DNA of 64,000 nt from Saccharofermentans sp. Lineage in GTDB: Bacteria > Bacillota > Clostridia > Saccharofermentanales > Saccharofermentanaceae. Made by a program: the position numbers and the translations under genes. Positions 36,928 through 59,357 of this stretch are shown one piece after another (the stretch's first letter is position 1; the number at the start of each line of letters is the position of its first letter). The DNA lies in contig JAKSRK010000002.1 in NCBI GenBank assembly GCA_024403655.1, positions 2,084-66,083 of the forward strand, in the 5' to 3' direction. A model generated the notes under the pieces. It was not told where the DNA came from. It saw only the letters and a program-made list of their open reading frames with translations, and ran no database searches.

Positions 36928-36932
36928 TATTA

Positions 36933-37841
36933 TTACCTTTCTCTGTTCTCTAACCCATTAGCAATAGTTCTTGCTTGACGTCGAGCTTCTTCACGAACCT
37001 TAGCTTCTTGCTCGTATTTTGCAAAGGACTGTTTAAAGCTTTTATTTTGCTTCTTATTATTCTCCTGATTAAGACTTATCGCCTGTTTCATTGGATCGGG
37101 CAAACCGTCTTGTGAGTTTATAAAATCCGTCTTTGAAGCTTCCTGAACTGTCAAATTCTCCTTTTCCTCCAACGAGTCTGGGTTTACTATTTCCTGATAA
37201 GCGATTAAATTCGGCTCTGAAAGATCTTTTGTTAGCTTCTGTTCCTTCAGAGCTTCGGGAAAATTTGCTTCTTTATCCTCGTTAGAATTAGAATGTTCCG
37301 ATGTCTTATTCGACTTAATCACATCAGAATTCTTCTGCTCAACTTTATCTTCTCGTTCTATCTCAGCTTTGGAGCCTTCAGGATTTTGAACTTTTTCCAT
37401 ATTGGTATGAAGCTTATGTTCATACTGCTCGAACCTCTTAGTACTAGACTGTTCAAGACTATATTCAATTAGTCCAAGTCTTTTACAGTATTCCTGGATA
37501 ACAGATGATAGCTTTTTATCGAATACAAGCAGTTTATTATTAGAAATATCATCTGAAACTACATATATCGGAATTCCTGCCTTAGATAACGGATCTAGTA
37601 ATTTTTGAGCATCTTCTTTATTCAGAGTAATCGCTCCAGGCTCTTTACCATCTTTTAAAAAAGCTTCACACGGATTCTTTTTATAGTACTGCTGCATTTT
37701 TTCCGCTTCAGACATTTTCTCGCGCTCGGCAGCATATTTTGCAACTATATCCATCATCACTCTTGAAGATGATTTTACAACTGTAGTTACCCCATCAACC
37801 ATTAATCTCATAGCATATGAGCCAACCTGTTCTTCAAGCAT
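36933..37841 (-). CDS. PcfB/DUF3801-like conjugation accessory protein
   Basis: MLEEQVGS..RLMVDG N-terminus, charged C-terminus, position upstream of T4SS genes. Confidence 0.5.
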   Translation of the reverse strand: MLEEQVGSYAMRLMVDGVTTVVKSSSRVMMDIVAKYAAEREKMSEAEKMQQYYKKNPCEAFLKDGKEPGAITLNKEDAQKLLDPLSKAGIPIYVVSDDISNNKLLVFDKKLSSVIQEYCKRLGLIEYSLEQSSTKRFEQYEHKLHTNMEKVQNPEGSKAEIEREDKVEQKNSDVIKSNKTSEHSNSNEDKEANFPEALKEQKLTKDLSEPNLIAYQEIVNPDSLEEKENLTVQEASKTDFINSQDGLPDPMKQAISLNQENNKKQNKSFKQSFAKYEQEAKVREEARRQARTIANGLENRER

Positions 37842-37846
37842 TTAGA

Positions 37847-39121
37847 TCACCTCTCATCTCTGGTATTTATCTTTCTATCCTGATATTGAATCTGCGGTGG
37901 TACATCCTGAATTAACTCACCATCCATAATCATCTTGATACACTTAGCAATGTCTCCAGGTGCTCTAAGATGTGAAATGCGATTTTTCTTCCATGTACCC
38001 TTGGTTCCGTTTATAGAGTTATAAAGTTTAATACCCTTTGCTGGCGGATCCCAGGAATTAAGATTAATCGTATAATCATCCAGTAAATAGTCTTTCTCGG
38101 TTATTCCACCTCTTATTGCTGCACCCTTATCGGATCCACAAGGAACGAAGATTCTATTTTGATCATCAAGCCACGGCATATGCTTATCAAGCCAGGCATT
38201 TTTCTCTGCTAATGCGTACTTACTATCAGTCAGTACAGCTGACAAAATATGGACTTCTACGTCTGGATTAAGCTGCTTAAAAAGTTTAATCGCATCGATA
38301 ACATTTTGGTTCGGTTTAAGATTCATGAAATAATTCTTTTCATATAATCTCTCCAAAGTATCAACAGGTTTGAATTCGGCAACCGTCCCATCCATATCCA
38401 CGAACAATCTTGTCTTTCTCTCTCCGGTATTGATATGCTCCGGTATTTTCTCGAACTTCTTAATAAGCTCCGGACTAACCTTTTCAGGATCCAATTTGAT
38501 TTCAGCTGGAATTATATCTTTAAAATGCTCATAGGCACTTCTGTAGACATCCTCATTAACCTGGCCAGAAAAGTAAGCCTGAAGCTCATGTATCCATTCA
38601 TCGATGAATTCCTCTTTATCTTCGTATTTGTCGTTCCACCACATATCAGAAAACGACTCAAACAGCTCATAATTCTTCTCAATGAGATCGCTCCAATTAG
38701 CTTCTACTTCGCTGAAATGTATGCTTTCTACAGAAGTAATATAGGTATTAGATACCATTAGGTCATAGAATTTACTGTAATAGTTGGTATTATTTTCAAA
38801 ATCTATCTGTACACATGAGATGGATGCGTTATAATCGACATCTACAACGTTTAGATTTCCGCCTGATACTGTAAGCATATCTTTTACAGATACTACGATT
38901 GGATCAGGTTCACGGAGAAGTTCTTTCCAATTAGGTATAGTCGATAAGCTCCCCATATTACCGCTATTCATAAGATCCGCTACAATGCCCGAGAATTTAC
39001 CTTTTCTAGCCTGTGATAATAGCTCCTTACTAATTTTATCCTGAAGTTCAGGCGGCAAATCACTAATCTTTGTCTCGTCTGTCATCCCACTTATATAACC
39101 GTTGTAATTAACTTTTGCCAT
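37847..39121 (-). CDS. Multidomain protein with C-terminal HAD 5'(3')-deoxyribonucleotidase (NT5C-like) domain
   Basis: LFVDMDGTVAEF, ILSA, EKNAWL, LLDDY. Confidence 0.7.
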   Translation of the reverse strand: MAKVNYNGYISGMTDETKISDLPPELQDKISKELLSQARKGKFSGIVADLMNSGNMGSLSTIPNWKELLREPDPIVVSVKDMLTVSGGNLNVVDVDYNASISCVQIDFENNTNYYSKFYDLMVSNTYITSVESIHFSEVEANWSDLIEKNYELFESFSDMWWNDKYEDKEEFIDEWIHELQAYFSGQVNEDVYRSAYEHFKDIIPAEIKLDPEKVSPELIKKFEKIPEHINTGERKTRLFVDMDGTVAEFKPVDTLERLYEKNYFMNLKPNQNVIDAIKLFKQLNPDVEVHILSAVLTDSKYALAEKNAWLDKHMPWLDDQNRIFVPCGSDKGAAIRGGITEKDYLLDDYTINLNSWDPPAKGIKLYNSINGTKGTWKKNRISHLRAPGDIAKCIKMIMDGELIQDVPPQIQYQDRKINTRDER

Positions 39122-39123
39122 CC

Positions 39124-40470
39124 TCAATACCTCTCTTTATTTTGAACTGAATATTTATCTTTTGACATCTGTGGTGATCTGCGATTGTGATTAAGTATGT
39201 AATCGCAATAGGAAATCTCTTTCTCAAGCTTCTTCTTTTCAGCTTTTTTAAAATCAGGATTCGTACTCTTGTCAGATTTAATTTCTACAAGTTCACGATG
39301 AAGCTTTATTTTTATTGCTGAAACATCATTAATAGACTTGATATCATTCTTTAGAATGAAACAGGATACTCCAGATATTAACTGAAGTTCCTTATACGCT
39401 GCTTTACCATCTGCAGATAGAGTATTTCTGTTAGAATTCTGCTCAAGTTCCTTTTTATACTTGAAGTATTTATAGAAGAAATAACTATGTACTTTTCTGC
39501 CATCGACATAATAACCTCGGTGCCGACGGTATAATTTAACACTATTTATTTTCAGTCTATATATCTTCTTGGGAGTTTTTAGCTGATATCTGACATATTC
39601 TCGGTTAAGCACTTGCTTATCGTATTCGGGATCAGAAAGCCTACGATATATATCTTCTATATCATATCCATCATAACGATTTAGGTTACAAAATCGGTAA
39701 AATCTACGCTTACCATTCTTATCATATGCATCAGGCGGAGATAATGCAGGGAATTTATATCTTGATCCAACCTTAAGTTGATAGCCTTTATCTTGAAGGA
39801 TGATGTATATATCATCCAGTGATATCGAATCAACAATTGCTGCATCAACATCTCTACATATACGTTCTCGCGTATACGGCTGACCAGCTTCTCTGTTTTT
39901 CAGCCAATTCTTAGTTCCAACTTGACTAGGTTCCTCGATAATAGACAGACCATGTTCAAGACAAATCTCGTCAGATGTTCTACGCATCAAATCATAATCT
40001 TCAGGAGAATTATAGAATTTATACCCATCAGCAATAGATACGGAATTAATCACAAAATGATTATGTACGTGGCCTGTATTAACATGTGTTGCTACAACGA
40101 CCTGAAAGCGATCTCCCCAAATCCGCTGAGCAAGTTCGACACCTATAGCATGAGCTTCTGAAGGTTCAACTTCATCTGCAGCAAATGATTGATATCCATG
40201 ATAACACTGTCTACCTTTGTCTTTATGGTAAATATCTTTAGTCTCCTGGAAGTACCACGCAGCTTCTTCAGGAGAATCAACAGCAACACCACCAATACCA
40301 GAGATGAGGAATGCCTTTTCATCACGTTCAGAAATAGAGAACTCACCCTGTCCATTCATATCAAGATGAAAATCTTTCCAATTACTAGAGTCCGTTTTCT
40401 CAGGATTCATAACATAAGATATACATTTATAAACAGTATTCTTATACGACCATAGGGATGTAACAGCCAT
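39124..40470 (-). CDS. MOBP-type relaxase
   Basis: YVMNPEKT (catalytic Tyr region), YHGYQSF, ATHVNTGHVHNHFVINSV (3H motif). Confidence 0.92.
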   Translation of the reverse strand: MAVTSLWSYKNTVYKCISYVMNPEKTDSSNWKDFHLDMNGQGEFSISERDEKAFLISGIGGVAVDSPEEAAWYFQETKDIYHKDKGRQCYHGYQSFAADEVEPSEAHAIGVELAQRIWGDRFQVVVATHVNTGHVHNHFVINSVSIADGYKFYNSPEDYDLMRRTSDEICLEHGLSIIEEPSQVGTKNWLKNREAGQPYTRERICRDVDAAIVDSISLDDIYIILQDKGYQLKVGSRYKFPALSPPDAYDKNGKRRFYRFCNLNRYDGYDIEDIYRRLSDPEYDKQVLNREYVRYQLKTPKKIYRLKINSVKLYRRHRGYYVDGRKVHSYFFYKYFKYKKELEQNSNRNTLSADGKAAYKELQLISGVSCFILKNDIKSINDVSAIKIKLHRELVEIKSDKSTNPDFKKAEKKKLEKEISYCDYILNHNRRSPQMSKDKYSVQNKERY

Positions 40471-40482
40471 ATTTCCTCCAAC

Positions 40483-40520
40483 AAAAAAGCACCCGATTTC
40501 TCAGGTGCTTCAGTAGTGTT
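40483..40520 (-). repeat. 38-bp terminator-containing segment duplicated at 55658-55695
   Basis: AAAAAAGCACCCGATTTCTCAGGTGCTTCAGTAGTGTT, exact in both places. Confidence 0.9.
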
Positions 40521-40523
40521 TTT

Positions 40524-40550
40524 AACTTTGCGACAAGTCGGTAAAATGTT
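40524..40550. repeat. 27-bp ICE palindrome, copy 3 (degenerate)
   Basis: AACTTTGCGACAAGTCGGTAAAATGTT; same position relative to the duplicated terminator as copy 9. Confidence 0.65.
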
Positions 40551-40551
40551 C

Positions 40552-40983
40552 TTATAACTTGTCAGGATAATATTCTAATCCAAATTCCCGGCAGATATCA
40601 TCAACCACAATTTCTTCTCCCGATATTAAAGAACTATCAACTGTCCTAGCTATAGACTCAAATGGTACTTTATCGACTAATTCAGAACTAGAATAAGGGG
40701 TAACATAGTAAAGGTATCTATATATAAATCCCACATATCCTGCCAAATCAAAATCCGAAACATCACACTTTTTTAGTTTACCCTCGATTTCAGGAAGAAT
40801 AAAATCCATGCATTCTATAGGCGTTTCAAACTGATAACGAGAATATTCCGTATCAAAGGCTTCAGCACAGAATTCTGATTTCAAAAAAGCATTTGAAAAA
40901 TCCTCAATGGAATATCCTAATTTAGCAGCATATTTATATATTCTTTTTTGTGTGCCACAGATTTTCAATTCGATACGATCCAT
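40552..40983 (-). CDS. Hypothetical protein, partner of the DUF3990-like gene (candidate antitoxin)
   Basis: 143-aa acidic helical ORF 9 bp downstream of the DUF3990-like gene. Confidence 0.6.
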   Translation of the reverse strand: MDRIELKICGTQKRIYKYAAKLGYSIEDFSNAFLKSEFCAEAFDTEYSRYQFETPIECMDFILPEIEGKLKKCDVSDFDLAGYVGFIYRYLYYVTPYSSSELVDKVPFESIARTVDSSLISGEEIVVDDICREFGLEYYPDKL

Positions 40984-40992
40984 AACTACTTC

Positions 40993-41658
40993 TTACCTTT
41001 CTCTTGACTGTTTCTCGCGGTTAAGTTCTTCCCGAACAATCTCATCAAGATACCTACCTTTTCCTCTTGTATTGCGAATGGCTTGATCTACTGCATCAAG
41101 AGCAATCCTTCGAGACTCTTTTGCATGTCGTTGTGCTTCTTCGAGCTCGACACCCTGAAGTTTCATACAACTAACAACTTCAATCTTAGAACAAGCATAT
41201 TCAGTTTTAGCAACATATTGAAAGCCGTAATTTACAGACTGAAGACATTCAATCAGAGCTACATCTGTCATTCCATAACTAGCAAAACGCTCTAAAGCAT
41301 CAAGCATTCTATCATCAGCAATCTTACCAACTACAACATCATAATGATTCAGCTTGTTTCTCCACCTTTTAGCGAGCTTAAGCTTATTGAACTCGTCACA
41401 ATACCGTCTATTAGAAAGGACTCCATTAAGCCAATTATTTCCATCCAATACTAAAATACGTTCATCAGGAATCTCCGATAGCTTCAAACGAAGAGTATAT
41501 AAAACTGGTTCTCTTTTTTCAGAAACAAGAGACGACGCTTGCATTTTATCGCTCCCCATATAGAAGCCTTTACCAAAATCACAAGACTCTCGACTCTCTG
41601 GCTGAATATCCCCTATAATTCCACCACGCGAACCATGATAAAGAATAATATCATCCAT
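40993..41658 (-). CDS. DUF3990-like protein (ADP-ribosyltransferase-like LYHGS..DFGKGFY signature)
   Basis: ILYHGS, DFGKGFY, W..NR, YDVVVGKIADDR, GFQY motifs recognised from memory of the family. Confidence 0.7.
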   Translation of the reverse strand: MDDIILYHGSRGGIIGDIQPESRESCDFGKGFYMGSDKMQASSLVSEKREPVLYTLRLKLSEIPDERILVLDGNNWLNGVLSNRRYCDEFNKLKLAKRWRNKLNHYDVVVGKIADDRMLDALERFASYGMTDVALIECLQSVNYGFQYVAKTEYACSKIEVVSCMKLQGVELEEAQRHAKESRRIALDAVDQAIRNTRGKGRYLDEIVREELNREKQSRER

Positions 41659-42031
41659 TATTTCTATTCCTTTCTGTTAACTCTACGCCAAGTTGGCACG
41701 AAGAAATACTTTCGTAACTTCTTTTCTCTTTAACTAACGTTATGACTTCTTTAAGTTCATCTGTAGTTTCTTTAAGTTTAAGTTCATCCATAATGATTCC
41801 GTGAGAATTGGCAACAGCAGCGATTTGATTAAGGTTATTACCGATCCTCATCAGCTGTCGGACTTCTTCTCGCATCTCCTTCGTCATCGGCGGTGGAACC
41901 TTGCCATCTCGAATCAGATGTCGTATAACGTCGGATGCGGTCAGCTCAGACTTATCCGCAAGCTTTTGAAGTCGGGTATAATCCTTGTCAGATAGTCTGA
42001 TTCGAATGGATTTATTCATTTTTTCTCTCAT
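41651..42031 (-). CDS. MobC relaxosome accessory protein (RHH)
   Basis: SIRIRLS..Y..L..LA..S.LT.SDVIR RHH plus LMRIGNNLNQIA MobC signature. Confidence 0.88.
   Translation of the reverse strand: MREKMNKSIRIRLSDKDYTRLQKLADKSELTASDVIRHLIRDGKVPPPMTKEMREEVRQLMRIGNNLNQIAAVANSHGIIMDELKLKETTDELKEVITLVKEKRSYESISSCQLGVELTERNRNNG
41679..41705. repeat. 27-bp ICE palindrome, copy 4 (3' end of mobC, before the DUF3990 SD)
   Basis: AACTCTACGCCAAGTTGGCACGAAGAA. Confidence 0.85.
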
Positions 42032-42049
42032 AACATACCCTTCCATTTT

Positions 42050-42076
42050 AACTTCGTGCCAACTTGGCACGAAGTT
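42050..42076. repeat. 27-bp ICE palindrome, copy 5 (perfect)
   Basis: AACTTCGTGCCAACTTGGCACGAAGTT. Confidence 0.95.
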
Positions 42077-42077
42077 A

Positions 42078-42269
42078 TCAGTGCTCAAATTCTCTTCTTT
42101 GTTCATTTGACAGATCAGCCGGTGGAACGATCGGCAAACTGCAATATCTGATCAAATATCGTATTGTACTCGAAGCGGTAAAACCGTTCGCAGCTGCCAG
42201 TTTCTGCAGACGATTAAACTCACACTCGGACATTCTGAAATGAAGTCTACGGCTAAGTTGTTCCTTCAT
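42078..42269 (-). CDS. Small RHH protein, paralog of the MobC N-terminal domain
   Basis: SD AGAGGT; RLHFRMSECEFNRLQKLAAANGFTASSTIRYLIR aligns with MobC. Confidence 0.7.
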   Translation of the reverse strand: MKEQLSRRLHFRMSECEFNRLQKLAAANGFTASSTIRYLIRYCSLPIVPPADLSNEQRREFEH

Positions 42270-42279
42270 ATGTCACCTC

Positions 42280-42420
42280 TAGCCCTGAGGGCTTTTCTCT
42301 TTTATTATACATCCCGAAACGAAAATTCGTCTCGGCGAGCAACGAATTTGTATCCACAATATGGATACAAATCATATTTAGGGCTTTGCCCTAAGACCCA
42401 TACTTTGACATCCGTCAAAG
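42280..42420. other. Candidate oriT
   Basis: Intergenic region upstream of the RHH/mobC/relaxase genes with hairpins AATTCGT/ACGAATT, ATTTGTATCC/GGATACAAAT and TAGGGC-TTT-GCCCTA. The nic site was not identified. Confidence 0.45.
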
Positions 42421-42421
42421 A

Positions 42422-43882
42422 TCATCTGCTCTCCCTTCGGATCGATTTATCGTTTTTCTTGGTCGGGAGATTACCTTCTGCAGCTCGATAAGAACGGAGA
42501 TATTCATTGTAATCTTTGGTCAAAATCTGTTCTCCGTTTTTGATTTTTTCTCTGCCGTCGATATCAACAGCAGGTATCGCTGGTGATAAATACACAACCG
42601 CTTCGATACCTTTATCTTCGAGATATTCTTTTATCTTTTTTGCATTAACGGGCCCCGCCGCCTTGTCCTCACCTACCTTTTTTACAACATCATAATCATT
42701 GTCGAGACAGATGAAAACCTTATTGATGTCAGGACGAGAATTAAGAAAATTATCTAGGGCAACTGTTGAAACACCACCTAAGGAAAGATAGTTCGCAAGC
42801 TCATCTTCAGGGTATTTTTCTTTAACAATATCCATATAACTAAATGCATCCATAGGAGTTTCAAAGAGAAACAATCTACTTGAGTTAGGATTTTCATGTC
42901 TCCATGAAAATTCCTTTGAAGAGTTCTCAGCTTCACCTTTAAACGGCTTCCTAGTAGTATCACTGTTACAGTGATATTTATCCCAGGTTTCCCAAAGTTC
43001 ACGTTTATACGCATACCTTATCTGACCTTCAGGATCCTTTCCTGGAACAACCATGTTATACCGTGGATTCTTTAATTCAACGGTATTGCCATCTTTATCA
43101 ATATAAGATTTTATTTCAGTCTCATACACATAACCTTCTTTGATCAACCAACGAACAAACTTATCACTTAATCCGCGGGTTAATGTTAAATAGGAATATA
43201 CATGCTTATTAGTATTATTCTTTTCAGGAGCTATGAAATCTTTACTTGTAGCAACTACTACAGCCTTTTCAGGCAAGCCTTTACCAAAGGCTTCACTTAT
43301 ATATTCTCTTGTAGCATCATCAGCATTATCAAGTAGAAGCTGATACAGCTCCGCAACGGAACCAACACTATTCCACAATGGCTCAGAAATACCACCAGGC
43401 TTAATCTGTCTTATCTGTTCCTTAGTAAGCAATGATAGATCCGCAGCTGAAAAGAATTTTGTATTAGACAACTTTCTCTCTTTTCGACTATTCTCTTGAA
43501 TTTTACTTTCCTGAAGATGTTCTTCCCAAGACTGAGAAGGAACACCGTAAACTGCCAAATGAATCTCTTCGTAAATTTTCATGCGGTCGGCTTTGGTAAT
43601 ATCCTGATATCCACAATAATCTCGAAGAAATTCATAAGCGTAATAGCAGCCTTTTTTACCTGATGCCCAATGTTTAAATCCGTTGGTCGTAATACTTACT
43701 GTATCGTGAGAAGCACCGTCATAGTCACAGGTATATATCGGCTCACCTGTTTTCTTATCGTACTTCCCTGTATCGTATGCGCGATATGCTCCCTTACCTG
43801 AAGTAAGGTAATCGTAGACAGATACTTTGGAAGCTCTATCTATCTCTTCTTTTGTATAGAAATACCTTGTTGTATCTGACAT
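42422..43882 (-). CDS. DUF3991/Toprim-domain protein (putative ICE primase-like)
   Basis: YLTLTRGL, LFLFETPMDAFSY, LSLGGVS, ICLDND, KDYNEYL. Confidence 0.75.
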   Translation of the reverse strand: MSDTTRYFYTKEEIDRASKVSVYDYLTSGKGAYRAYDTGKYDKKTGEPIYTCDYDGASHDTVSITTNGFKHWASGKKGCYYAYEFLRDYCGYQDITKADRMKIYEEIHLAVYGVPSQSWEEHLQESKIQENSRKERKLSNTKFFSAADLSLLTKEQIRQIKPGGISEPLWNSVGSVAELYQLLLDNADDATREYISEAFGKGLPEKAVVVATSKDFIAPEKNNTNKHVYSYLTLTRGLSDKFVRWLIKEGYVYETEIKSYIDKDGNTVELKNPRYNMVVPGKDPEGQIRYAYKRELWETWDKYHCNSDTTRKPFKGEAENSSKEFSWRHENPNSSRLFLFETPMDAFSYMDIVKEKYPEDELANYLSLGGVSTVALDNFLNSRPDINKVFICLDNDYDVVKKVGEDKAAGPVNAKKIKEYLEDKGIEAVVYLSPAIPAVDIDGREKIKNGEQILTKDYNEYLRSYRAAEGNLPTKKNDKSIRRESR

Positions 43883-43897
43883 ATTTAACTTCCTTTC

Positions 43898-43924
43898 TAC
43901 TTTGCGCCAAGTTGGCGCGAAGTT
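43898..43924. repeat. 27-bp ICE palindrome, copy 6 (overlaps the TAA of the upstream gene)
   Basis: TACTTTGCGCCAAGTTGGCGCGAAGTT. Confidence 0.92.
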
Positions 43925-44750: not shown

Positions 44751-44761
44751 ATAAAAACTCC

Positions 44762-45073
44762 TTATCGACGTCCAGCGATAAACAGTGCTATGGCTCCAGC
44801 AAACATTACGATTGCACCGCCAAAAGCTGATTTAAGTGCAGTCTTTTTTTCGTGAGGACTCTGCTCACTCCAAGCAAAGCCAAACATTACGATAGAAACA
44901 ACAAGCCAGATGAATCCAATTCCAGTACAAAGGCTAGCTATAAGTGTAGCCAATCTATTAATTGGCTCATCAAGCTCAGAGATACCTGTATCAGATATGT
45001 TAATATCGTCGTCAGCCATGAGCATGAAGATTCTTGAAGAAAGACTGTAATAAGTATTAATAAGTGAATGCAT
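44762..45073 (-). CDS. Small two-TM pilin-like (VirB2/Maff2-type) protein
   Basis: 103 aa with two hydrophobic helices separated by SEQSPHEKKTALK. Confidence 0.5.
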   Translation of the reverse strand: MHSLINTYYSLSSRIFMLMADDDINISDTGISELDEPINRLATLIASLCTGIGFIWLVVSIVMFGFAWSEQSPHEKKTALKSAFGGAIVMFAGAIALFIAGRR

Positions 45074-45149
45074 ATTGTATAATCTCCTTTAAAGTAAGAT
45101 AAGAGCTGCCCCAAACGAAGCAGCTCCTATCTTTTGTCCAATTCGTATC

Positions 45150-45176
45150 AGCTTCGTGCCAATTTGGCGCGAAGTT
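45150..45176. repeat. 27-bp ICE palindrome, copy 7
   Basis: AGCTTCGTGCCAATTTGGCGCGAAGTT, 2 bp after the stop at 45179. Confidence 0.92.
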
Positions 45177-45178
45177 GA

Positions 45179-46168: not shown

Positions 46169-46169
46169 A

Positions 46170-51174: not shown

Positions 51175-51370
51175 TTCCTTCCTTTCTTATGTGATAAATT
51201 AAAAAGGAATCCAATTAAGGATTCCTTTGCTAACAAAAAGTAAGTAAATAAAAAGGGATGGTCGCGTCCTCTATACACAAGTAATTGTTCCTTTCTATTT
51301 TTCTCCAAAAACAAAGGATCCCGTTTCCGAGATCCAATGTTTTTTATATGGCAACAATTTCAGATATTAG

Positions 51371-52876
51371 TTAAACCCAAACAACTCCATTGATAGTAGC
51401 AGAACCTGCTGCCATCCAAGAATTGCTACTATAATCGTATTCCATACGCTGAAAACCAACAGAATACAAATAGTCCTGATAAGTGTCAGTCCAAATTGCT
51501 CTATGACCAGGAGAATTTAACAATCTGGTGTAAACATCCGTAGCATTAGTTCCACTTGCAAGATTCTCATCCATAGGGTAAGGACTACCACTTTGACCAT
51601 TAGGTCTTATATGTCCCCAAACAACCGTTGCTTCAGCAGCTCTTAGTCTAAAAGTATTGATTGCTTCCTGAGATACACCACTTGTAAGATACGGCTGTAA
51701 GCCTAATGTGTTTACTCGATAATTGTTAATCATGTTATCAAGCTCAGACATATCAACATAGTATCCATAAATTCTCTGTGTCTGTCCGTTACCCATATCA
51801 ATATCAATGATTTCATAGCCGTTAGCTCTTGCAGAAGCATCAATATCAAATGCTGCTGACGGAGTAGAGGGAGTTACAGGACTAGGAGCCGGAGCAGGAG
51901 CAGGTGCAGTTGTTTCATAGAAACAATTTGATGTACTACCAGGAGCAGCGGATCCAACAGGAAGTATTAGTACCTCAATACCTTCGAGTCTGTATCCATA
52001 TCCGGCACTACCACAAGGAGCACCGTCCTTTGCCCAACCTGTCCAACCAAAGTTCTGTACGTGTGTTCTATACCACACATTGTAGCTACCTGAATTACTA
52101 CCATTAAGAGAAATTTCAATAGCTTCAAGTCTCAAACTCTGTCCTTCTGTACCGGACATTGCTCCATTGGATACCCAACCTTGCCAACCAATGTTCTGTA
52201 CGTGTGTCTTGTACTGGATACCTACACCGGAGATATTAGATGAAATCTTTATACCTTCAAGTCTAAGGCTCTGCCCTGTTGTACCAGACATAACACCATC
52301 GGTTACATTTGACTGCCAACCAATGTTCTGAACGTGAGTATTATATGTAACAAATGTAGGAGAAGCACCTGCCGGTACTACTCTAATCTCAATGCCTTCA
52401 AGTCTTAAGCTCTGACCTTCTGTACCAGCCATTGCTCCATCCTTAACCCAAGACATCCAACCGATATTCTGTACGTGTACTCTATAGTAAATATCGTAGT
52501 TAGAGGCATTACTACCTGTAAGCTCAATCTTGACACCCTCAAGTCTTAAAGATCTACCTTCTGTACCGGACATTGCTCCGTTGGATACCCAACCTTGCCA
52601 ACCATCATTCTGAACATGAGTCTTGTATCTAACACCTAAGTTCTGACCTGAGACATTAACCTTCAATCCCTCAAGTCTTAAACTCTGTCCTTCTGTACCG
52701 GACATTGCTCCATTAGATACACTTGTCTGCCAACCAACATTCTGTACGTGTGTACTGTAAGATACACTTACGTCGGTATTAGAAGCAGCCATGACGTTCT
52801 GGGGCAACACAAAAAGCATAAGAAGAATTGAAAGCACAACTGTTATGCTTGTAATCCTTATATTTTTATTCTTCAT
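51371..52876 (-). CDS. Secreted protein with six ChW (clostridial hydrophobic W) repeats and a C-terminal CAP/SCP domain
   Basis: Repeated Y.THVQN.GWQ..V..GAMSGTEGQSLRLEG; HIRPNG, ENLA, NSPGHRA. Confidence 0.85.
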   Translation of the reverse strand: MKNKNIRITSITVVLSILLMLFVLPQNVMAASNTDVSVSYSTHVQNVGWQTSVSNGAMSGTEGQSLRLEGLKVNVSGQNLGVRYKTHVQNDGWQGWVSNGAMSGTEGRSLRLEGVKIELTGSNASNYDIYYRVHVQNIGWMSWVKDGAMAGTEGQSLRLEGIEIRVVPAGASPTFVTYNTHVQNIGWQSNVTDGVMSGTTGQSLRLEGIKISSNISGVGIQYKTHVQNIGWQGWVSNGAMSGTEGQSLRLEAIEISLNGSNSGSYNVWYRTHVQNFGWTGWAKDGAPCGSAGYGYRLEGIEVLILPVGSAAPGSTSNCFYETTAPAPAPAPSPVTPSTPSAAFDIDASARANGYEIIDIDMGNGQTQRIYGYYVDMSELDNMINNYRVNTLGLQPYLTSGVSQEAINTFRLRAAEATVVWGHIRPNGQSGSPYPMDENLASGTNATDVYTRLLNSPGHRAIWTDTYQDYLYSVGFQRMEYDYSSNSWMAAGSATINGVVWV

Positions 52877-53108
52877 CTTGTATCTCCTTGAAATCAATAC
52901 CACTATCAAAGTTCTTCATTATGAAATCACAATACTTAATCAAGCGTTCTTGAAACTTATAATCTTTGTATTGCTGATATGAAATTAATATTGCACCATC
53001 ATACGGACTCTTTCTGTTAGTTATTCTAACAGCTTCTCGATTAGATGCTGCAAGCTCATAATATTGTCTCAGCTGTTCCCTAAATTCTGTTAAGTTCACT
53101 TCTTTCAT
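52866..53108 (-). CDS. Phd/YefM-family antitoxin
   Basis: MKEVNLTEFREQL...V.ITNR....AILISY pattern; own SD and promoter. Confidence 0.75.
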   Translation of the reverse strand: MKEVNLTEFREQLRQYYELAASNREAVRITNRKSPYDGAILISYQQYKDYKFQERLIKYCDFIMKNFDSGIDFKEIQDEE

Positions 53109-53147
53109 AATGATAATCTCCTTTGCTAAATATAGTTATCTAGCAAT

Positions 53148-53175
53148 ATTATAACACTTCTGTACAGTTAATCAA
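53148..53175 (-). promoter_or_regulatory. Promoter of the Phd-like gene
   Basis: TTGATT-16 bp-TATAAT with an extended -10 TG; GTACAGTT direct repeats nearby. Confidence 0.55.
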
Positions 53176-53212
53176 TTCTATCAGTACAGTTGCGGAGATC
53201 CACTTTAAATCC

Positions 53213-54010
53213 TTAAGACCCACATATGCCACAAGGAACATACTCTTCAGCAATCATAGAACTGTGATTACCTTCTATGATAATCTGATTTTCAACAGGA
53301 ACATTCATAAGCTCATCACAGAATGGTACATGGAATGTACGCGATTGAATATCAACTATATATCCTATTGTTGTTTCAGTAGGTACTACGGGTTCAGGTG
53401 TTGGAGTTGCTGTCGGTGTAGTAGCAGTAGTTTCAGTCTCAGATGTTACGGTAGTCTCTGTAGCATTGGGATAAAGCTCAACATACTCAGTATCGTTTAT
53501 CTCCGCAACTACAATAACGTCTCCACACTGAACCTCTACTCGACTCCATTCCTTATATGATAAATAAACAATTAATCCGTTATATGATCTTCCTGGATTG
53601 ATGGAAACAGATCTAAACAAAAGGTTATTATCTACAACCCAAGGGTAGTCTACATAGTTTTGCTCAATTGCTTTCTGATTATCGAGATAACCTGAAATCG
53701 AATCTCCTATAGATACATATACTGATGCATCCGTATTATTCGTGTATGTAACATCGCATACTACATAGAAATAATCCGCATCGTGAAAATTCTTGATGCT
53801 ATTCACGCAAAAGGTAAAATCCTCTGTTTCAACTTCATCTCCTATATCGTAGTAAAGTTGACTCTCTTCCGTTTCATCAGATCCATCAACTTCTACTGAA
53901 GATGAGTCAGAATCTATGACATCCTCAGCTTTCTTAATCTTGCAGCTTGAAGCGAAGCCGCAGAATACAATTCCAGAAAGCATCACACATGCTATCTTTT
54001 TTAATTTCAT
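53213..54010 (-). CDS. Lipoprotein with an Ig-like middle domain and a C-terminal Ada-like Zn motif
   Basis: Lipobox ASSC; T/P linker; FHVPFC...CGIC. Start ATG 54010 behind GAAAGGAG. Confidence 0.65.
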   Translation of the reverse strand: MKLKKIACVMLSGIVFCGFASSCKIKKAEDVIDSDSSSVEVDGSDETEESQLYYDIGDEVETEDFTFCVNSIKNFHDADYFYVVCDVTYTNNTDASVYVSIGDSISGYLDNQKAIEQNYVDYPWVVDNNLLFRSVSINPGRSYNGLIVYLSYKEWSRVEVQCGDVIVVAEINDTEYVELYPNATETTVTSETETTATTPTATPTPEPVVPTETTIGYIVDIQSRTFHVPFCDELMNVPVENQIIIEGNHSSMIAEEYVPCGICGS

Positions 54011-54023
54011 AGTTACTCCTTTC

Positions 54024-54050
54024 AACTTCTCGCCAAGTTGGCGCGAAGTT
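54024..54050. repeat. 27-bp ICE palindrome, copy 8
   Basis: AACTTCTCGCCAAGTTGGCGCGAAGTT. Confidence 0.93.
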
Positions 54051-54051
54051 A

Positions 54052-55098
54052 TCAATGCTCAAATTCTCGTTCGATTTTCTTTGGTTTCTTTTTGACTACA
54101 TCAAGAGAAGGAGCATCTTGATCAAGCTGTTTATCTTTTTGCTTGAACTCCGCTTTTTCCATGATGTACTCTTCGATACCCGTTGCAACATCGATTGCTT
54201 TAAAGAGTTCTTCTGGCTCTTTTTCTAGTACCTCAATCCAAGACTGTATATATGCTGCATGATTATTTACATGCTGCTCATCCAATCCTAGGCCAAACTC
54301 AGCACAGATAAAAGACGAAGCAATCTCAGCTCTAAGTTCTTCTTTAGCATAAGTGATATTACCAAAGCCATCATTATTTACAAGTGTGTCACGATTTAAC
54401 CTTGAAGAATGTCCTGTAGCATGACATAACTCATGAAGCTGAGTTGAATAGTAATACTCAGGAGATTTAAACGCTCCGCTAGGTGGAATTACTACGGTAT
54501 CTTTTGTAGGCGAATAATATGCTCTGGAACCTTCTTCTATATAATTGACACCCATATTCTCAATGATCTTGCCGATTCTAACATCAGCATCTATCGAATT
54601 CTCTTTTAGGTGTTCCAATTCAGGATCAGGCTCAAGTCCGTTAATGATATCGCCATTAAACACATAATAGTTTCTCCAAGGACGGATATAGCAGTTCTTA
54701 GGATTGATTTCATCGTTATTGACCAGCTTCTTGTAGTCCTCAAACGAGATCATCTTCTTAAGTTCTGAAGAATAAACACCATAATATGTAATAGGCACTC
54801 CCATTCCCTTCGCTTCGTCCTTGAACATTTGACCAGTAATATTATGCTTTTCGCGATAATCTTTAATCTGATTAAATGTCATCCATCTTCTATCGCTCCA
54901 TCCTGCATCCGCAGCTACTATAGCCAGAAGCAATGCATTCTTTCCCTTATAGGCTCTATTGGTTATTCCGTTCCTGTTTCCTGAGAGATTCTTCCAACCT
55001 TTAATCCAGGGAAGTTCATCTTCTTTAAGACAGCTGATATATTTATCAATCAGCATTTGTTTTGTTTTATCCTTTTCAAAATTACTCTTCGTCGGCAT
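54052..55098 (-). CDS. ArdC-family antirestriction protein (ArdC-N plus zincin-like MPTase)
   Basis: LPWIKGW, Y.GKN.LLL, RWMTFNQI, VFN, AYYSP..D.VVIP, HELCHATGH (HExxH), YAKEELRAE. Confidence 0.9.
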   Translation of the reverse strand: MPTKSNFEKDKTKQMLIDKYISCLKEDELPWIKGWKNLSGNRNGITNRAYKGKNALLLAIVAADAGWSDRRWMTFNQIKDYREKHNITGQMFKDEAKGMGVPITYYGVYSSELKKMISFEDYKKLVNNDEINPKNCYIRPWRNYYVFNGDIINGLEPDPELEHLKENSIDADVRIGKIIENMGVNYIEEGSRAYYSPTKDTVVIPPSGAFKSPEYYYSTQLHELCHATGHSSRLNRDTLVNNDGFGNITYAKEELRAEIASSFICAEFGLGLDEQHVNNHAAYIQSWIEVLEKEPEELFKAIDVATGIEEYIMEKAEFKQKDKQLDQDAPSLDVVKKKPKKIEREFEH

Positions 55099-55645
55099 AT
55101 TCAACAAGCTCTCCTTCCCCTAATTCCATCTCGATATCTTCTGTAAAGATATCTTCAGCTGCAATACCATTAAGCTTTGCAAATTCATTAAGATCTTCAC
55201 TGTGAATAACCATTTTTAAAACCTCCTGTGAATCTGATAAATCTATCGGCTCAACTTCGTGCCTACCGTAATAGAATTCATATTTCAATTTATTATGCGA
55301 GGGATATAAGAAGTCACCTACCGCACCAAGCTTAACCTTATACCCTAGCCTGTTCCATTCTTCTTCTAACCGTAGATTAACTGTATCGATATCAGTTCTA
55401 AACTCCGTTCCATAACTAGTCATAAGTGGAAGAACTTTACCCAAGGAATTTCTGTTCTGAATTCGTGTGAAACCGATTGGAGACAAAGAAGCATTGTATC
55501 CAATCAAACAAAATATCGGCTCTCTTGTTTCTGGATCCCTATAAAAACCCCACGATACATATGAAAATGTATGATTTCTATTCTGAATCACCCCGGTATC
55601 TCTCCAAAACTTCAGATTACCTATATGCACAATCTCATATTTCAT
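55082..55645 (-). CDS. Hypothetical protein
   Basis: ORF with SD GGAGA; no recognisable motif. Confidence 0.6.
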   Translation of the reverse strand: MKYEIVHIGNLKFWRDTGVIQNRNHTFSYVSWGFYRDPETREPIFCLIGYNASLSPIGFTRIQNRNSLGKVLPLMTSYGTEFRTDIDTVNLRLEEEWNRLGYKVKLGAVGDFLYPSHNKLKYEFYYGRHEVEPIDLSDSQEVLKMVIHSEDLNEFAKLNGIAAEDIFTEDIEMELGEGELVEYADEE

Positions 55646-55657
55646 TTTATCTCCCAT

Positions 55658-55695
55658 AAAAAAGCACCCGATTTCTCAGGTGCTTCAGTAGTGTT
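55658..55695 (-). repeat. 38-bp terminator-containing segment duplicated at 40483-40520
   Basis: AAGCACC/GGTGCTT hairpin plus T6 on the minus strand. Confidence 0.9.
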
Positions 55696-55698
55696 CTT

Positions 55699-55725
55699 AA
55701 CTTCGCGCCAACTTGGCACGAAGTT
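55699..55725. repeat. 27-bp ICE palindrome, copy 9
   Basis: AACTTCGCGCCAACTTGGCACGAAGTT. Confidence 0.95.
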
Positions 55726-55727
55726 CC

Positions 55728-56594
55728 TTAACGCTCGATTTCTCGGTCTTTTGCCTTAGTTCTTTCCTTATCAAGTTTTTTCACACACTCTCTTGTTGCT
55801 TCAAGTATTTTGATCTGCGCCTTATATTCTTCAATAATGGACTCTTTAAAGATCCTCAAGAATGAACTAGGATCAGCTTTAACCTGCCAATCTTCAAGGG
55901 CTCCGTTATATTCACCCTTGGCAGATGCCTTAATAGTTATCTGCGGATAGCCGAATGAAACTAACATGGCATTCATTATGTTGCGTCCGGTTCGCCCGTT
56001 ACAATCAATAAAAGGATGTATACGCTCAAACATAGCATGAAACGCAGCAATCTTAACCAACGGATGATTCGGACAATTATTAAACTGATAAACGAGATCC
56101 GCCATACACTCTCTAATATAGAAAGCATCTACAGGCGCAGTCATGGAACCTTTAATAATTGCCGGAGACATACGATATACGCCTCTAGTTCGAGGTTGAC
56201 AATCAAGAGCAGTCCTCTGATGAGTATCTTTTATATATTCTTCGGTAAGCTGCGGATACTCAGATATCGTTTCGACTGCATAACTACATCCCTCAAAACA
56301 ACCTTTGGCAGCAAATATATCTCTAAGTTTGCTGTCAGGACGATGTGGAGGGAATTCACCGTCAAGAACCAATGCCGTATCCCCAAGACTTAATGTGCTT
56401 CCTTCTAAAGAATTAGAGTTATATACAAATCTGACTTTGAAGTCTTCTTCGTAACTCTGAAGACCATCAAGATCCGTTTCATTAAAGGGCTTTAAACTTT
56501 CGTATTTAGCTTTAAGCTCCTCAACCTCATCGAAATAGTCAAAGGCCACCGAAGTATTGAATGCTTGATATAACTGTTCTCCAACTTCACTCAT
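55728..56594 (-). CDS. Fic-family protein (class II, N-terminal inhibitory motif)
   Basis: HPFIDCNGRTGR signature variant; SNSLEG fits (S/T)xxxE(G/N). Confidence 0.9.
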   Translation of the reverse strand: MSEVGEQLYQAFNTSVAFDYFDEVEELKAKYESLKPFNETDLDGLQSYEEDFKVRFVYNSNSLEGSTLSLGDTALVLDGEFPPHRPDSKLRDIFAAKGCFEGCSYAVETISEYPQLTEEYIKDTHQRTALDCQPRTRGVYRMSPAIIKGSMTAPVDAFYIRECMADLVYQFNNCPNHPLVKIAAFHAMFERIHPFIDCNGRTGRNIMNAMLVSFGYPQITIKASAKGEYNGALEDWQVKADPSSFLRIFKESIIEEYKAQIKILEATRECVKKLDKERTKAKDREIER

Positions 56595-56654
56595 AACAGG
56601 CTCCTTTATCCTTCACATGTTGCGATTATAGCATTTATATCTATTATAAAGAAT

Positions 56655-56681
56655 AACTTCGCGCCAAATTGGCGAGAAGTT
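56655..56681. repeat. 27-bp ICE palindrome, copy 10
   Basis: AACTTCGCGCCAAATTGGCGAGAAGTT, adjacent to an extended -10 (TGCTATAAT, 56625-56633 minus) upstream of fic. Confidence 0.93.
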
Positions 56682-56683
56682 AA

Positions 56684-57010
56684 TTAACGTTCGATACCTT
56701 TATCTTTAGTCTTAGGCTGCTTAGTAGATTTTATGTGATTCACTATAGTATTCAATTCTTGTTCCATCATCATGCCTCGCTAGTTGTTCTTGAAAATATA
56801 CTTTCTGTACGGAAGTCTTTTGCCATTGGATGTTTCTTGTTCAGGTCGGATATAACCGATTACTGAGTTATTGCTTGAGAGACCAACTAAACAAGAAATG
56901 TATTCTTTACAGTTCGGATCAAAATATTTACCATCAGCTACATAGTCAAACCCTTTATAGCAGCTATGCTTTGGAAAACCTATTTGGATGATTGAATTCT
57001 TTATTCTCAT
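56684..57010 (-). pseudogene. Probable pseudogene: no SD, internal in-frame TAG
   Basis: The frame continues past TAG (56780-56782) as RGMMMEQELNTIVNHIKSTKQPKTKDKGIER-stop, the same tail style as neighbouring genes. Confidence 0.6.
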
Positions 57011-57047
57011 AGTTCGTGCCAACTTCGCGCCAAGTTGGCACGAAGTT
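57010..57047. repeat. 27-bp ICE palindrome, copy 11 (extended by an extra 11-bp period)
   Basis: TAGTT-CGTGCC-AACTT-CGCGCC-AAGTT-GGCACG-AAGTT. Confidence 0.92.
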
Positions 57048-57408
57048 ATCTTTCTAATCCTCTATACTTATGTTTTACAGATTCTTTTTCAGTTTCACCT
57101 TTTAAACGTTGGTTTTGTTCAACTTCTTCCTGAACCTTCAAACGAGTTAATCTTTCATTCAGATTGTGAAGATTTTCAAAACTTGAATCAGTTACCACCT
57201 GCGAAAGCTTATCCAAATATAGTCTCATATCAGAACCAAATTCAGTTTTCTGTTTCATTGCAAACAGAAGCTTATATAAATTCTGCAATTTAGAATCATA
57301 CTCTAAAGTTAATTTTGTAGCTTCTGAAATACTCAAGTCATCTTTTGCTATTTCATTTACATTTTCTTGAAGAACAGTTTTTAAAAGCTCATAAAATTCT
57401 TCGTCCAT
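57046..57408 (-). CDS. Hypothetical helical protein
   Basis: SD AAAGGAG; ends KYRGLER. Confidence 0.65.
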   Translation of the reverse strand: MDEEFYELLKTVLQENVNEIAKDDLSISEATKLTLEYDSKLQNLYKLLFAMKQKTEFGSDMRLYLDKLSQVVTDSSFENLHNLNERLTRLKVQEEVEQNQRLKGETEKESVKHKYRGLER

Positions 57409-57422
57409 CTTGCATCTCCTTT

Positions 57423-57449
57423 CTCGCTGCGCCAACTTGGCGCGAACTT
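57423..57449. repeat. 27-bp ICE palindrome, copy 12 (one arm degenerate)
   Basis: CTCGCTGCGCCAACTTGGCGCGAACTT. Confidence 0.8.
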
Positions 57450-59337
57450 ATCTTTCCATTCCCTGATTGCGATTTATATGATGAACTGGAGCTGTTTTTC
57501 TTTCTCCGGCTGATAACAGTTCCATGCTATATTTTTTAAGATCAGAATCCTTAACCGGATATGAGTATTTAAGAATTGCTTTGAACTTACCATCTGGATC
57601 TGTACCTTGATAAAGCAGATTCTCCATAGGTTGCATACCATATCCAAAAGAGTGATGTATCCCATATACATATGCGTTGTCGTATTCGTTACTTTTAAAA
57701 TGATCATAATAACCATTGAGACTTTCAGATATAACCATAGGCTTTTCTATTCCTTTCATTACATCCCTAACATGTTTATGCCATCTTTTGATAAATTCTG
57801 TTTGGGCTGCATTATGAATCGGCCTGTTATATGCTAAAAATTTTTGTTTTATTGTTGATCCATCCGGAGACAATTCAATTGTAACAAGTGAAGTATTGGG
57901 AGTTCTTTTTTCCCTCATAACAAATATTAGTGATGTACCAGAAAGGATTCTGTGGTAATAGCTTGCAACACAATTATGCTGTTGATTAGCTTCATTTAAT
58001 AAATCCTCATGGCTTCGTATTCCACGAATAAAGAATAAATCCTCTTCATAATCATACTTACGCAAGTTATCAGTAGCATTTTTTTCTTTAAGTTTATCCG
58101 CTGCGTTTCGGTTAACAGATGAAGCTATTCTATAATTTCGTGAAACTACATCGTGTTCTCTTTTAAGGGAATCTCCATCAATCTTTGGTTTAATATTCAG
58201 GGACTGACATTGTCTTAAATAATCATCGATTAATATTAATGCTTCATCAGTACCAATTGCTTCATACATATCTACTCGTTGTAAATAAGTCATTAATGAA
58301 GGGAACGTGAATACTTGCTTATTTTCATATTTTCTTCCAAGGATACTGGAAATCTGATCTAGCTGTTTTTTGGAGAGTCTTGCATCATAAGCAAGCTGTA
58401 TTTCATTGTTACCTAGCCTTCCAAACTTATCCATCTTCCTGTAGTTATCCCAAACAAATATATCTGCTTCTGATTTTAAAACTTTGCACACCACTTGCGA
58501 TGTTTTAAAAATGTTTTTCAATTTTCCAGGATTATCAAGTCTTTTTATTAATCGATTGTAACTATCCAACTTACCCTGATCCAACTCTGAATTCTTATTT
58601 AATGGCTTGATGGCAGCTACATATTTCTCTGCAAACAGATAACCAGCTTTAATCAAACTTTCAAGTTCCGGTGCAGCCAGGATTGTCAACGGTTCAGGAT
58701 CTATTAATCCTTTATACCCATTTTCCTTATATCTTTCATCAAAAAAATATTTATAGGTCCAAGGTTTAACCTCTTTTAAAATGTCTAACAATTCATCATT
58801 TGTTTGATAGCATCCTATACATTTTTCATGAAAGCGTTCATTTATTTTCCAATCTGATTTTTCACATATACTAATAGTTCTACTTACTCGATCTAAATCA
58901 AGCTTAACGTATGCTTCCCAAACTCGTGAGTTTTCATCTACATAGTAGATATAGTACGGTTCTGTATTACTAATAGTTCTTAAATCATTATAGGCATTGT
59001 ACCAACGTGATTTTATAGGTAATGTGTAATCATCATTATTTTGATGAGTGATATTGTTTCCAAGCACTTTTAAATCACAAAAAACCCCAAAAATTTCTAA
59101 ATCACTGAATAAATCAACCTTATTCCACATTTCTTTGATATCAGGATTTAAAACTGGCTTTTCAACCTTTTTTGCTTCTTTTTTCTTTGGAGCATCTACG
59201 ATCTTAGGAACGCTTTCGGAAGTAATACTTTTATCATTCAAAATTACAGGTTTTCTATCAAGTGTTACTGCAATCTCTTCTTCCGCTATTTTAATGAGTT
59301 CATCAAATGTAATCTGGTTAGATTCATCAGCTGCCAT
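57448..59337 (-). CDS. PcfJ-like domain protein
   Basis: DDYLR..L..EHD, DLLNEANQQHNCVASY..I..R...P..SLVTIEL. Confidence 0.8.
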   Translation of the reverse strand: MAADESNQITFDELIKIAEEEIAVTLDRKPVILNDKSITSESVPKIVDAPKKKEAKKVEKPVLNPDIKEMWNKVDLFSDLEIFGVFCDLKVLGNNITHQNNDDYTLPIKSRWYNAYNDLRTISNTEPYYIYYVDENSRVWEAYVKLDLDRVSRTISICEKSDWKINERFHEKCIGCYQTNDELLDILKEVKPWTYKYFFDERYKENGYKGLIDPEPLTILAAPELESLIKAGYLFAEKYVAAIKPLNKNSELDQGKLDSYNRLIKRLDNPGKLKNIFKTSQVVCKVLKSEADIFVWDNYRKMDKFGRLGNNEIQLAYDARLSKKQLDQISSILGRKYENKQVFTFPSLMTYLQRVDMYEAIGTDEALILIDDYLRQCQSLNIKPKIDGDSLKREHDVVSRNYRIASSVNRNAADKLKEKNATDNLRKYDYEEDLFFIRGIRSHEDLLNEANQQHNCVASYYHRILSGTSLIFVMREKRTPNTSLVTIELSPDGSTIKQKFLAYNRPIHNAAQTEFIKRWHKHVRDVMKGIEKPMVISESLNGYYDHFKSNEYDNAYVYGIHHSFGYGMQPMENLLYQGTDPDGKFKAILKYSYPVKDSDLKKYSMELLSAGERKTAPVHHINRNQGMER

Positions 59338-59357
59338 ATCAAATTCCTCTTTTCTTG

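Follow-up and report, generated by a model that had tools for sequence, protein, structure and literature searches.

The 36-kb integrative and conjugative element (ICE) considered here lies within a stretch of 64,000 nucleotides from Saccharofermentans sp. (contig JAKSRK010000002.1, positions 2,084 to 66,083), referred to below as the window. Comparison of its genes with those of related elements indicated that seven of its soluble accessory proteins end in a short peptide tag that is apparently under selection at the protein level. The tag, designated class B, has the form [KR]-x-[KRQ]-[GE]-[LIMF]-E-[RH]-COOH. An earlier note on this DNA had listed a set of about twelve ICE proteins with basic tails ending in ER or EH and had proposed that the tail was a signal for export by the type IV secretion system (T4SS). 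That list mixed two things, the class B peptide tag and a second group of tails, class A, that appear to be by-products of ribosome-binding sites. What stood of the proposal was a tag at the C-termini of seven soluble accessory proteins, specific to the lineage and kept at the protein level, compatible with an address label for a coupling protein and T4SS, while the size of the set, its basicity and the analogy with the Bartonella toxin VbhT did not hold.

Occurrence and enrichment of the tails

All twelve of the tails quoted in the earlier note were found at the ends of the genes to which they had been assigned (Table 1). The tail was absent, as had been claimed, from VirB4, the VirB6-like and PrgI-like proteins, ParA, ParB and RepA, and it was also absent from VirD4. 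All of the tail-bearing proteins were predicted to be soluble, and every ICE protein with a transmembrane or signal segment lacked the tail. The seven stop codons said to be followed by a palindrome (genes at 42078, 45179, 54052, 55728, 56684, 57046 and 57448) indeed had the palindrome core within 0-11 nt.

The check that had been suggested, a comparison of the ICE with the chromosome, was made with a simple open reading frame (ORF) caller on ORFs of at least 80 aa in the 2.1-Mb host genome. E[RH]-stop was the end of 8 of the 33 ICE ORFs and of 9 of the 1826 ORFs outside it (Fisher p = 8.7e-11), while the narrower pattern, [GE][LIMF]E[RH]-stop, was found in 5/33 and 0/1826, respectively. These counts ruled out chance or composition as the source of the tails.

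The related elements used for comparison were L123, L132 and L135, in which the DUF5688, Fic and NT5C-like proteins were 57%, 84% and 92% identical, respectively, to those of the window. Several tails had to be removed from the original set of about twelve, leaving seven. The relaxase ends in KER-Y, so that ER is not terminal. The Toprim tail, SIRRESR, has neither the ER nor the EH form and, although SIHRESR is found in L135, the protein of the more distant L123 ends in SHDCRSL and the tail is thus not conserved there. Four tails, those of the genes at 36933 and 37847, the relaxase and DUF3990, were apparently in-frame Shine-Dalgarno (SD) sites. The description of the tails as basic was also overstated, since the proteins that bear them have a net charge of only -2 to +4 over their last 20 residues. 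At the DNA level the two classes differed: the arginine of class B was encoded by CGT or AGA, or the final histidine by CAC or CAT, followed by the palindrome; the arginine of class A was encoded by AGG.

Class B tails and selection on the peptide

The class B tail consists of the final 7-10 residues of proteins that have no transmembrane segments. Five of the carriers belong to distinct Pfam families or to none, and the remaining two are a 63-aa protein and the gene at 56684, which represents a recent pseudogene or a pair of small ORFs. Five of the window tails end in E-R, with the pattern [KR]-x-[KRQ]-[GE]-[LIM]-E-R, and two end in E-H. The second form, E-[FL]-E-H, is found on the ArdC-like protein and the 63-aa protein and was kept in L123, L132 and L135. 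The charge pattern consists of one terminal arginine or histidine and one or two Lys/Arg residues at positions -5 and -7.

Selection was assessed on the last seven codons of eight tails from five gene families (DUF5688, Fic, the 56684 gene, DUF7339-like and PcfJ-like) and three elements (the window, L123 and L132). The values of pS and pN were 0.85 and 0.21, respectively, giving a pN/pS of 0.25, a ratio that is biased downward because the tails had been picked by likeness, a point against the peptide tag. The variation at third codon positions was 0.53 versus 0.18 at second positions, and the BLOSUM score per residue was 2.4 in the coding frame versus 0.7 and 0.0 in the other two frames. The codons in use were CGT and AGA for arginine, CTT and TTA for leucine (CTG in L124) and GGG, GGA and GGT for glycine. 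Synonymous sites near saturation together with retained residues are not the pattern of a drifting DNA repeat, and the class B tail is, on these comparisons, most readily seen as a short peptide tag under protein-level selection.

The tail also appears to be an added feature rather than a family trait. Among 31 homologues of the DUF5688 protein, 28 lacked the tail and three had it (98, 57 and 37% identity), and homologues with 41-45% identity were among those without it. Only the 100% and 84% identical entries of 76 Fic homologues carried a class B tail, the other 74 being without it. The nearest PcfJ representative (54% identity) ends in VEVSVDV, and none of the near representatives had the class B tail. 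Two more distant Fic homologues were considered as tag carriers and rejected; P0046, which ends in DLER, has GAG-AGG ahead of another SD site and no palindrome, and P0042, which ends in EHEH, has an unrelated context. A disordered tail on the Fic protein was likewise dropped when the AlphaFold2 model gave a confident helix instead.

The Fic protein (55728-56594, minus strand) has the canonical HPFxDGNGRxGR sequence and, in the same chain, the invariant inhibitory motif S60-x-x-x-E64-G65. It is therefore predicted to be an auto-inhibited Fic protein of class II and not a toxin whose antitoxin is a separate protein, and the comparison with the toxin VbhT that had been drawn is correspondingly loose.

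In-frame Shine-Dalgarno sites

The class A tails belong to four tightly coupled genes, and their E-R is written GAA-AGG or GAG-AGG followed by the stop codon, with one extra codon (TAT) before the stop in the relaxase. AGG encoded the arginine in 4/4 window tails and in 3/3 tails of L123, and lies 7-12 nt ahead of the next start codon; the L123 orthologues keep ER as AGG 7-9 nt ahead of the next start. The same sequence, GA[AG]AGG(A), also serves as the ribosome-binding site after palindromes in the ICE.

In L135 the orthologue of the 302-aa protein at 36933 ends in GLEHEKG (GAG-AAA-GGG-TAA), with GAGAAAGGG retained in another reading frame and GAGAAAGG in place. The NT5C-like orthologue (92% identical) ends in REERQ (GAG-GAG-AGG-CAA-TAA), with GAGGAGAGG retained and followed by CAA TAA. 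The window relaxase reads GAGAGG-TAT-TGA, giving KERY, while the relaxases of L123 and L135 end in SKER. Since the purine motif is kept at the place required by the next gene, whereas the encoded residues and their terminal position change, the class A ER is best explained as the SD hexamer GA[AG]AGG of the following gene that happens to be read in frame, and hence as a by-product. No homologue of the 302-aa protein was found in 399 genomes of the taxonomic class.

It counts against this explanation that all five GA[AG]AGG SD sites inside gene ends sit in the E-R frame, which would be expected by chance about 1 time in 81, and class A may, strictly, still have some role as a peptide. Because all five motifs are in the E-R frame and the relaxases of other elements end in arginine, the relaxase in particular may combine an SD site with an Arg-type tail. 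Similar findings of shared tails call for caution in practice, as true tags have to be told apart from ribosome-binding sites that are read in frame.

The palindrome

The palindrome that follows the class B stop codons is 27 bp in length, and its core was found nowhere in the 2.1-Mb genome outside the ICE. A search of 40 relatives of the host likewise found no copy, and for this reason the element is considered foreign to the genus sample. When one genome per species was scanned, the site proved to be widespread in Clostridia metagenome-assembled genomes, and 117 loci of other elements were collected. A homologue of the ICE ParB (PF02195) was encoded in 91 of these loci, and 90 of the 97 palindromes in ParB-encoding loci lie inside parB itself, near residue 160 in the helix-turn-helix region, where the sequence reads LRAKLARS (loci L007-L122). 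A comparable arrangement is that of Bacillus subtilis, which has one parS inside spo0J. The window parB has no internal copy, and 13-15 copies are dispersed in the ICE; it looks as if a parS-type site left parB and multiplied between genes in this lineage. One copy (31011-31045, minus strand) lies in frame within a long ORF upstream of the CHAP domain, where it reads QQLRANLARSKKRKK, in the same register as inside parB elsewhere.

The mismatches in the palindrome stem had no sense-strand bias (8 were G-U-compatible versus 9 C-A), and the half-sites vary independently. Both observations point to a site on double-stranded DNA that would be bound by a dimer, and not to an RNA hairpin, and the palindrome fits a putative parS-like ParB site of this family. 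A sense-strand RNA hairpin that constrained the tail was rejected for the lack of strand bias in the G-U-compatible mismatches. Copying of the tail and palindrome together from the 3' end of parB was also rejected, as elsewhere the palindrome sits near residue 160, far from the ParB tail.

The palindrome serves as a recombination breakpoint for cassette exchange as well, because the identity between L124 (2840-3150) and L123 (10728-11048) is about 60% through the DUF5688 gene and jumps to 100% from the palindrome onward. The divergent DUF5688 cassettes of L124 (GLERE) and L123 (KGIER) are both tagged, with very different codons. In the window, hydrophobic-E-[RH]-stop was found at 7/11 gene ends that bear a palindrome versus 0/23 others (p = 6e-5). 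Nevertheless, the link between tag and palindrome is not obligatory either way. Untagged gene ends are also followed by the palindrome (KFNM, RPDN, INSV and YAGD in the window; DYSF and KNHG in L132). Conversely, in L135 a cassette between mobC and the relaxase gene encodes a 262-aa Fic-like protein whose SRGIER end is not followed by a palindrome. Most simply, tag and palindrome would both be parts of cargo cassettes that can be exchanged, the tag lying on the gene side and the ParB site at the junction.

Tails in the wider element family

The ORFs of the 117 loci were clustered, the representatives were named by Pfam and the distinct tails were counted. Arginine was the last residue in 30 of the 32 distinct tails of PF03432 relaxases (17 of them E-R), in 5/6 tails of MobA/MobL relaxases, in 51/70 tails of ParB (29 of them E-R) and in 20/23 tails of ParA. 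The residue at -2 was mostly E, then A or S, in the two relaxase families and ParB, and V or L in ParA. Among the controls, arginine ended 0/41 serine recombinases, 2/22 RepA proteins, 0/14 actin-like proteins (ALP) and 0/13 MobC/NikA proteins. All six arginine codons were in use across the relaxase, ParB and ParA families, so that the family-wide arginine ends cannot be ascribed to SD sites. Ends of the form E-[RH] made up 7.4% of the ORFs in the 117 loci versus 0.5% in the host genome. The class B tail would appear to be the local version of a terminal-Arg tail found on the relaxases, ParA and ParB of many related conjugative and mobilisable elements of Clostridia.

Other shared ends were also found, a different common tail being placed on members of the same protein families in other lineages. 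In L127 (7632-15680), 8 of 26 proteins, including SSB, Rep, an ArdC-primase fusion and DUF5688, have an acidic tail ending in hydrophobic-D/E-I/V/L, with no repeat after the stop codons. The NT5C family has three classes of tail, Arg, G-x-F-L and W-E-M/E-I, and 74 of 150 representatives of the PcfJ family (P0228-P0377) end in alanine, mostly Ala-Ala or hydrophobic-Ala.

Possible function of the class B tail

Relaxases are the canonical substrates of the coupling protein. ParA, ParB, SSB and PsiB of an F plasmid depend on the coupling protein and the relaxosome for their passage through the T4SS (PMC8406263), and substrates of VirB/VirD4 have C-terminal signals with arginine (PMC10025392) and a hydrophobic residue at -3 or -4 (PMC5536186). 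The occurrence of the tag on soluble cargo, the Arg tails on relaxases, ParA and ParB, the presence of a VirD4-type protein and these published precedents suggest the coupling protein as the common partner. By analogy with those systems, there is about an even chance that the class B tag docks cargo onto the VirD4-type coupling protein. The tag on the soluble cargo would be bound by this protein, by which the cargo would be recruited to the mating channel and possibly passed on into the recipient. The palindrome, a separate feature, would mark the junctions where elements swap cargo genes that are already tagged.

A more far-reaching version must be regarded as tentative and somewhat doubtful: the hydrophobic-Glu-Arg/His end would be the recognition signal of a Gram-positive coupling protein, the ICE would inject at least six cargo proteins (ArdC-like, Fic, PcfJ-like, DUF5688, DUF7339-like and the 63-aa protein) along with the DNA, and tag and ParB-site palindrome would together form a portable cassette end. 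No translocation signal is known to have been defined for a Gram-positive conjugation system; the literature that was searched did not describe a signal of this kind and had no paper joining a C-terminal arginine with a relaxase. If true, a readable seven-residue tag would predict which proteins (anti-restriction proteins, Fic proteins and members of unknown families) are sent to recipients by elements of gut Clostridia and would give a handle on substrate recognition by the coupling protein. It would also explain how accessory genes move between elements as ready-made cassettes, since related elements could swap cargo genes already addressed to the machine.

Several observations weigh against the docking of a peptide tag on the coupling protein, 1) class B ends in histidine, not arginine, in two families, 2) the L124 tail has an extra residue after the arginine (GLERE), 3) the tails are weakly charged (-2 to +4), unlike the Agrobacterium signals, 4) the window relaxase ends in KER-Y and the window ParA and ParB are untagged, 5) the AlphaFold2 model of the Fic protein, the one protein modelled, has a predicted local distance difference test score (pLDDT) of 94 and puts the tail at the end of a helix (residues 243-287), the last block having a pLDDT of 88, and 6) every class B tail of the window adjoins a palindrome, and some of the linkage may thus lie at the DNA level.

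An unlikely but reasonable alternative is that the tag is meant for another partner and has nothing to do with export, either as a degradation tag on early-acting or toxic cargo or as a handle for the ParA/ParB complex or another hub of the ICE. Selection on the peptide is silent on the identity of the partner, and among the PcfJ representatives half have Ala-Ala or hydrophobic-Ala ends, which resemble known C-terminal protease tags. A degradation tag would be odd, however, on stable maintenance proteins such as ParA and ParB. The Arg-ending tails on the ParA and ParB of related elements and the putative ParB site that adjoins each class B tail would suit a partition handle, but the window ParA and ParB are untagged, so the tail is not needed for partition here. 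Moreover, the tag is found on two unrelated relaxase families, and the partner that relaxases are known to share with ParA-like and ParB-like proteins is the coupling protein (PMC8406263).

It is less probable still that all of the tails are by-products of the DNA, class A arising from SD sites, of which kind it indeed appears to be, and class B from a recombining module (a stretch coding for the tail, the stop codon and the palindrome) that lends its reading frame to the gene upstream. The constant neighbourhood of the palindrome in the window would suit such a module, as would its place at a recombination boundary, the extent of repeat families D6 and D7, which run on from the palindrome for 25-37 nt into the sequence that codes for the tails, and the tails of the Fic and DUF5688 genes of L123, which are identical over 21 nt and suggest gene conversion. 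A recombination site was likewise proposed for the shared tail of the tfs3 element (PMC5536186). A mobile stretch of DNA does not, however, account for synonymous sites near saturation with the residues kept (pN/pS 0.25), for the very different codons of the two tagged cassettes in L123 and L124, for the SRGIER end of L135 that lacks any palindrome, for the four to six palindromes that follow untagged gene ends or for the shared tails of the L127 lineage, which have no repeat. A purely translational role is very improbable. In this view the palindrome would form a hairpin in the mRNA, with the final residues and the stop codon at its base, and these would modulate termination, stalling of the ribosome or coupling with the following cistron. 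The stop codon is 0-6 nt ahead of the palindrome and the SD site of the next gene comes directly after its 3' arm, as this role would have it, but the stem mismatches are without sense-strand bias (8 versus 9), the half-sites vary independently, as expected of double-stranded DNA to which a dimer binds, 90 other elements have this palindrome inside parB, and the L135 tail does without it.

Comparison with known systems

The closest published parallel to the class B tag is found in the Helicobacter pylori tfs3 ICE, in which CtkA, PZ39 and Fic have acquired a common C-terminal tail whose removal abolishes a T4SS-dependent effect (PMC5536186). In both cases an acquired tail, absent from outside homologues, is shared by accessory proteins that are unrelated to each other but encoded on the same ICE, one of them a Fic protein, and the tfs3 tail was read as a T4SS secretion signal (PMC5536186). 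However, tfs3 is a Gram-negative element with a tail of 27 residues ending in KRRR, while the class B tail, known here from sequence, has 7-10 residues ending in hydrophobic-E-R/H, is weakly charged and is flanked by the ParB-site palindrome. There is no likeness between the two tail sequences, KRRR being absent from class B.

The signals of Agrobacterium VirF, VirE2 and VirE3 resemble class B in their position at the extreme C-terminus of soluble substrates, in the use of arginine and in the VirD4-type coupling protein (PMC10025392), but consist of a cluster of positive charge within about 20-50 residues, whereas here a single terminal Arg/His follows Glu in a near-neutral tail of a Gram-positive element. 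The T4SS of the F plasmid pED208 transfers ParA, ParB1, SSB, ParB2, PsiB and PsiA, which serve in maintenance and establishment, to recipients (PMC8406263). These classes of protein overlap those with Arg-ending tails in the related elements of Clostridia (ParA and ParB), although no sequence signal has been defined for the pED208 substrates and the ParA and ParB of the window are untagged. Bartonella VbhT, like the ICE protein, is a Fic protein of a conjugative element with a C-terminal delivery signal (PMC5675462), which in the ICE is putative. VbhT has a BID domain of about 100 residues with a charged tail and a separate antitoxin (PMC5675462), while the ICE Fic protein has no BID domain and has the S-x-x-x-E-G motif internally.

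Features of the element

The direct repeat of 54 nt at each boundary of the ICE corresponds to a tRNA 3' end, and the genes of the ICE are on the minus strand throughout. Pfam upheld the names given previously to the VirD4-type coupling protein, the VirB4-like ATPase, the CHAP hydrolase, the MobA/VirD2 relaxase and the DUF3990 and Toprim/DUF3991 proteins, and likewise those of the DUF5688, ArdC-like, Fic, DUF7339-like and PcfJ-like proteins, the LPXTG adhesin and RepA. ParA and ParB of the ICE were recognised through their homologues.

Table 1. Positions in the window of the tails, palindromes, boundaries and presumed partners, with predicted SD sites.
Feature	Position	Strand	Remarks
ICE left boundary, copy of 54-nt direct repeat (tRNA 3' end)	26777..26830	.	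repeat family D16, 96% identical to right copy
VirD4-type coupling protein, presumed receptor of the tail	34106..35983	-	PF02534, PF12696, PF10412
Class A tail GLENRER-stop, 302-aa protein	36933..36965	-	GAA-AGG is SD of next gene; ATG 8 nt past AGG
Class A tail INTRDER-stop, NT5C-like, 426 aa	37847..37879	-	GAG-AGG is SD of next gene; AGG-ATG 8 nt
Relaxase tail QNKERY-stop	39124..39156	-	GAG-AGG is SD of next gene; AGG-ATG 8 nt; ER not terminal
Class A tail REKQSRER-stop, DUF3990	40993..41025	-	GAA-AGG 12 nt ahead of next ATG; no orthologue available in relatives
Class B tail EQRREFEH-stop, 63-aa protein	42078..42110	-	palindrome core 3 nt past stop; orthologues in L123 and L135 end in REFEH
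Toprim/DUF3991 tail SIRRESR-stop	42422..42454	-	not ER/EH; SIHRESR in L135, SHDCRSL in L123
Class B tail TQNKDRGLER-stop, DUF5688	45179..45211	-	palindrome 4 nt past stop
Class B tail KKIEREFEH-stop, ArdC-like (ArdcN + MPTase)	54052..54084	-	palindrome 3 nt past stop; orthologues in L123 and L132 have LELEH + palindrome
Class B tail TKAKDREIER-stop, Fic	55728..55760	-	palindrome 4 nt past stop
Class B tail PKTKDKGIER-stop, gene with in-frame TAG (80 aa + TAG + 31 aa)	56684..57022	-	palindrome 4 nt past stop
Class B tail VKHKYRGLER-stop, DUF7339-like, 129 aa	57046..57078	-	stop TAA is first triplet of extended palindrome
Class B tail HINRNQGMER-stop, PcfJ-like	57448..57480	-	stop adjoins degenerate palindrome
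Palindrome core CTTCGCGCCAA-N-TTGGCGCGAAG, 13 copies	31020, 36000, 41681, 42052, 43900, 45152, 54026, 55701, 56657, 57012, 57425, 59717, 60813	.	span 31020..60835
Degenerate palindrome copies	40517, 59673		
ParB-like protein, presumed palindrome binder	60849..61757	-	ends in KAYAGD (tail absent); no palindrome inside
ICE right boundary, copy of 54-nt direct repeat	62769..62822	.	repeat family D16

The C-terminus of the coupling protein (34106-34150, minus strand) is strongly basic, RKTSRRKRK, and this is conserved in the lineage (ARKRKK in L123 and YSRRKRK in L135). The gap between mobC and the relaxase gene is a hot spot for cassettes; it holds DUF3990 and a 143-aa partner in the window (40483-41705), is empty in L123 (14412-14588) and is occupied in L135 by the 262-aa Fic-like gene ending in SRGIER (7800-8588).

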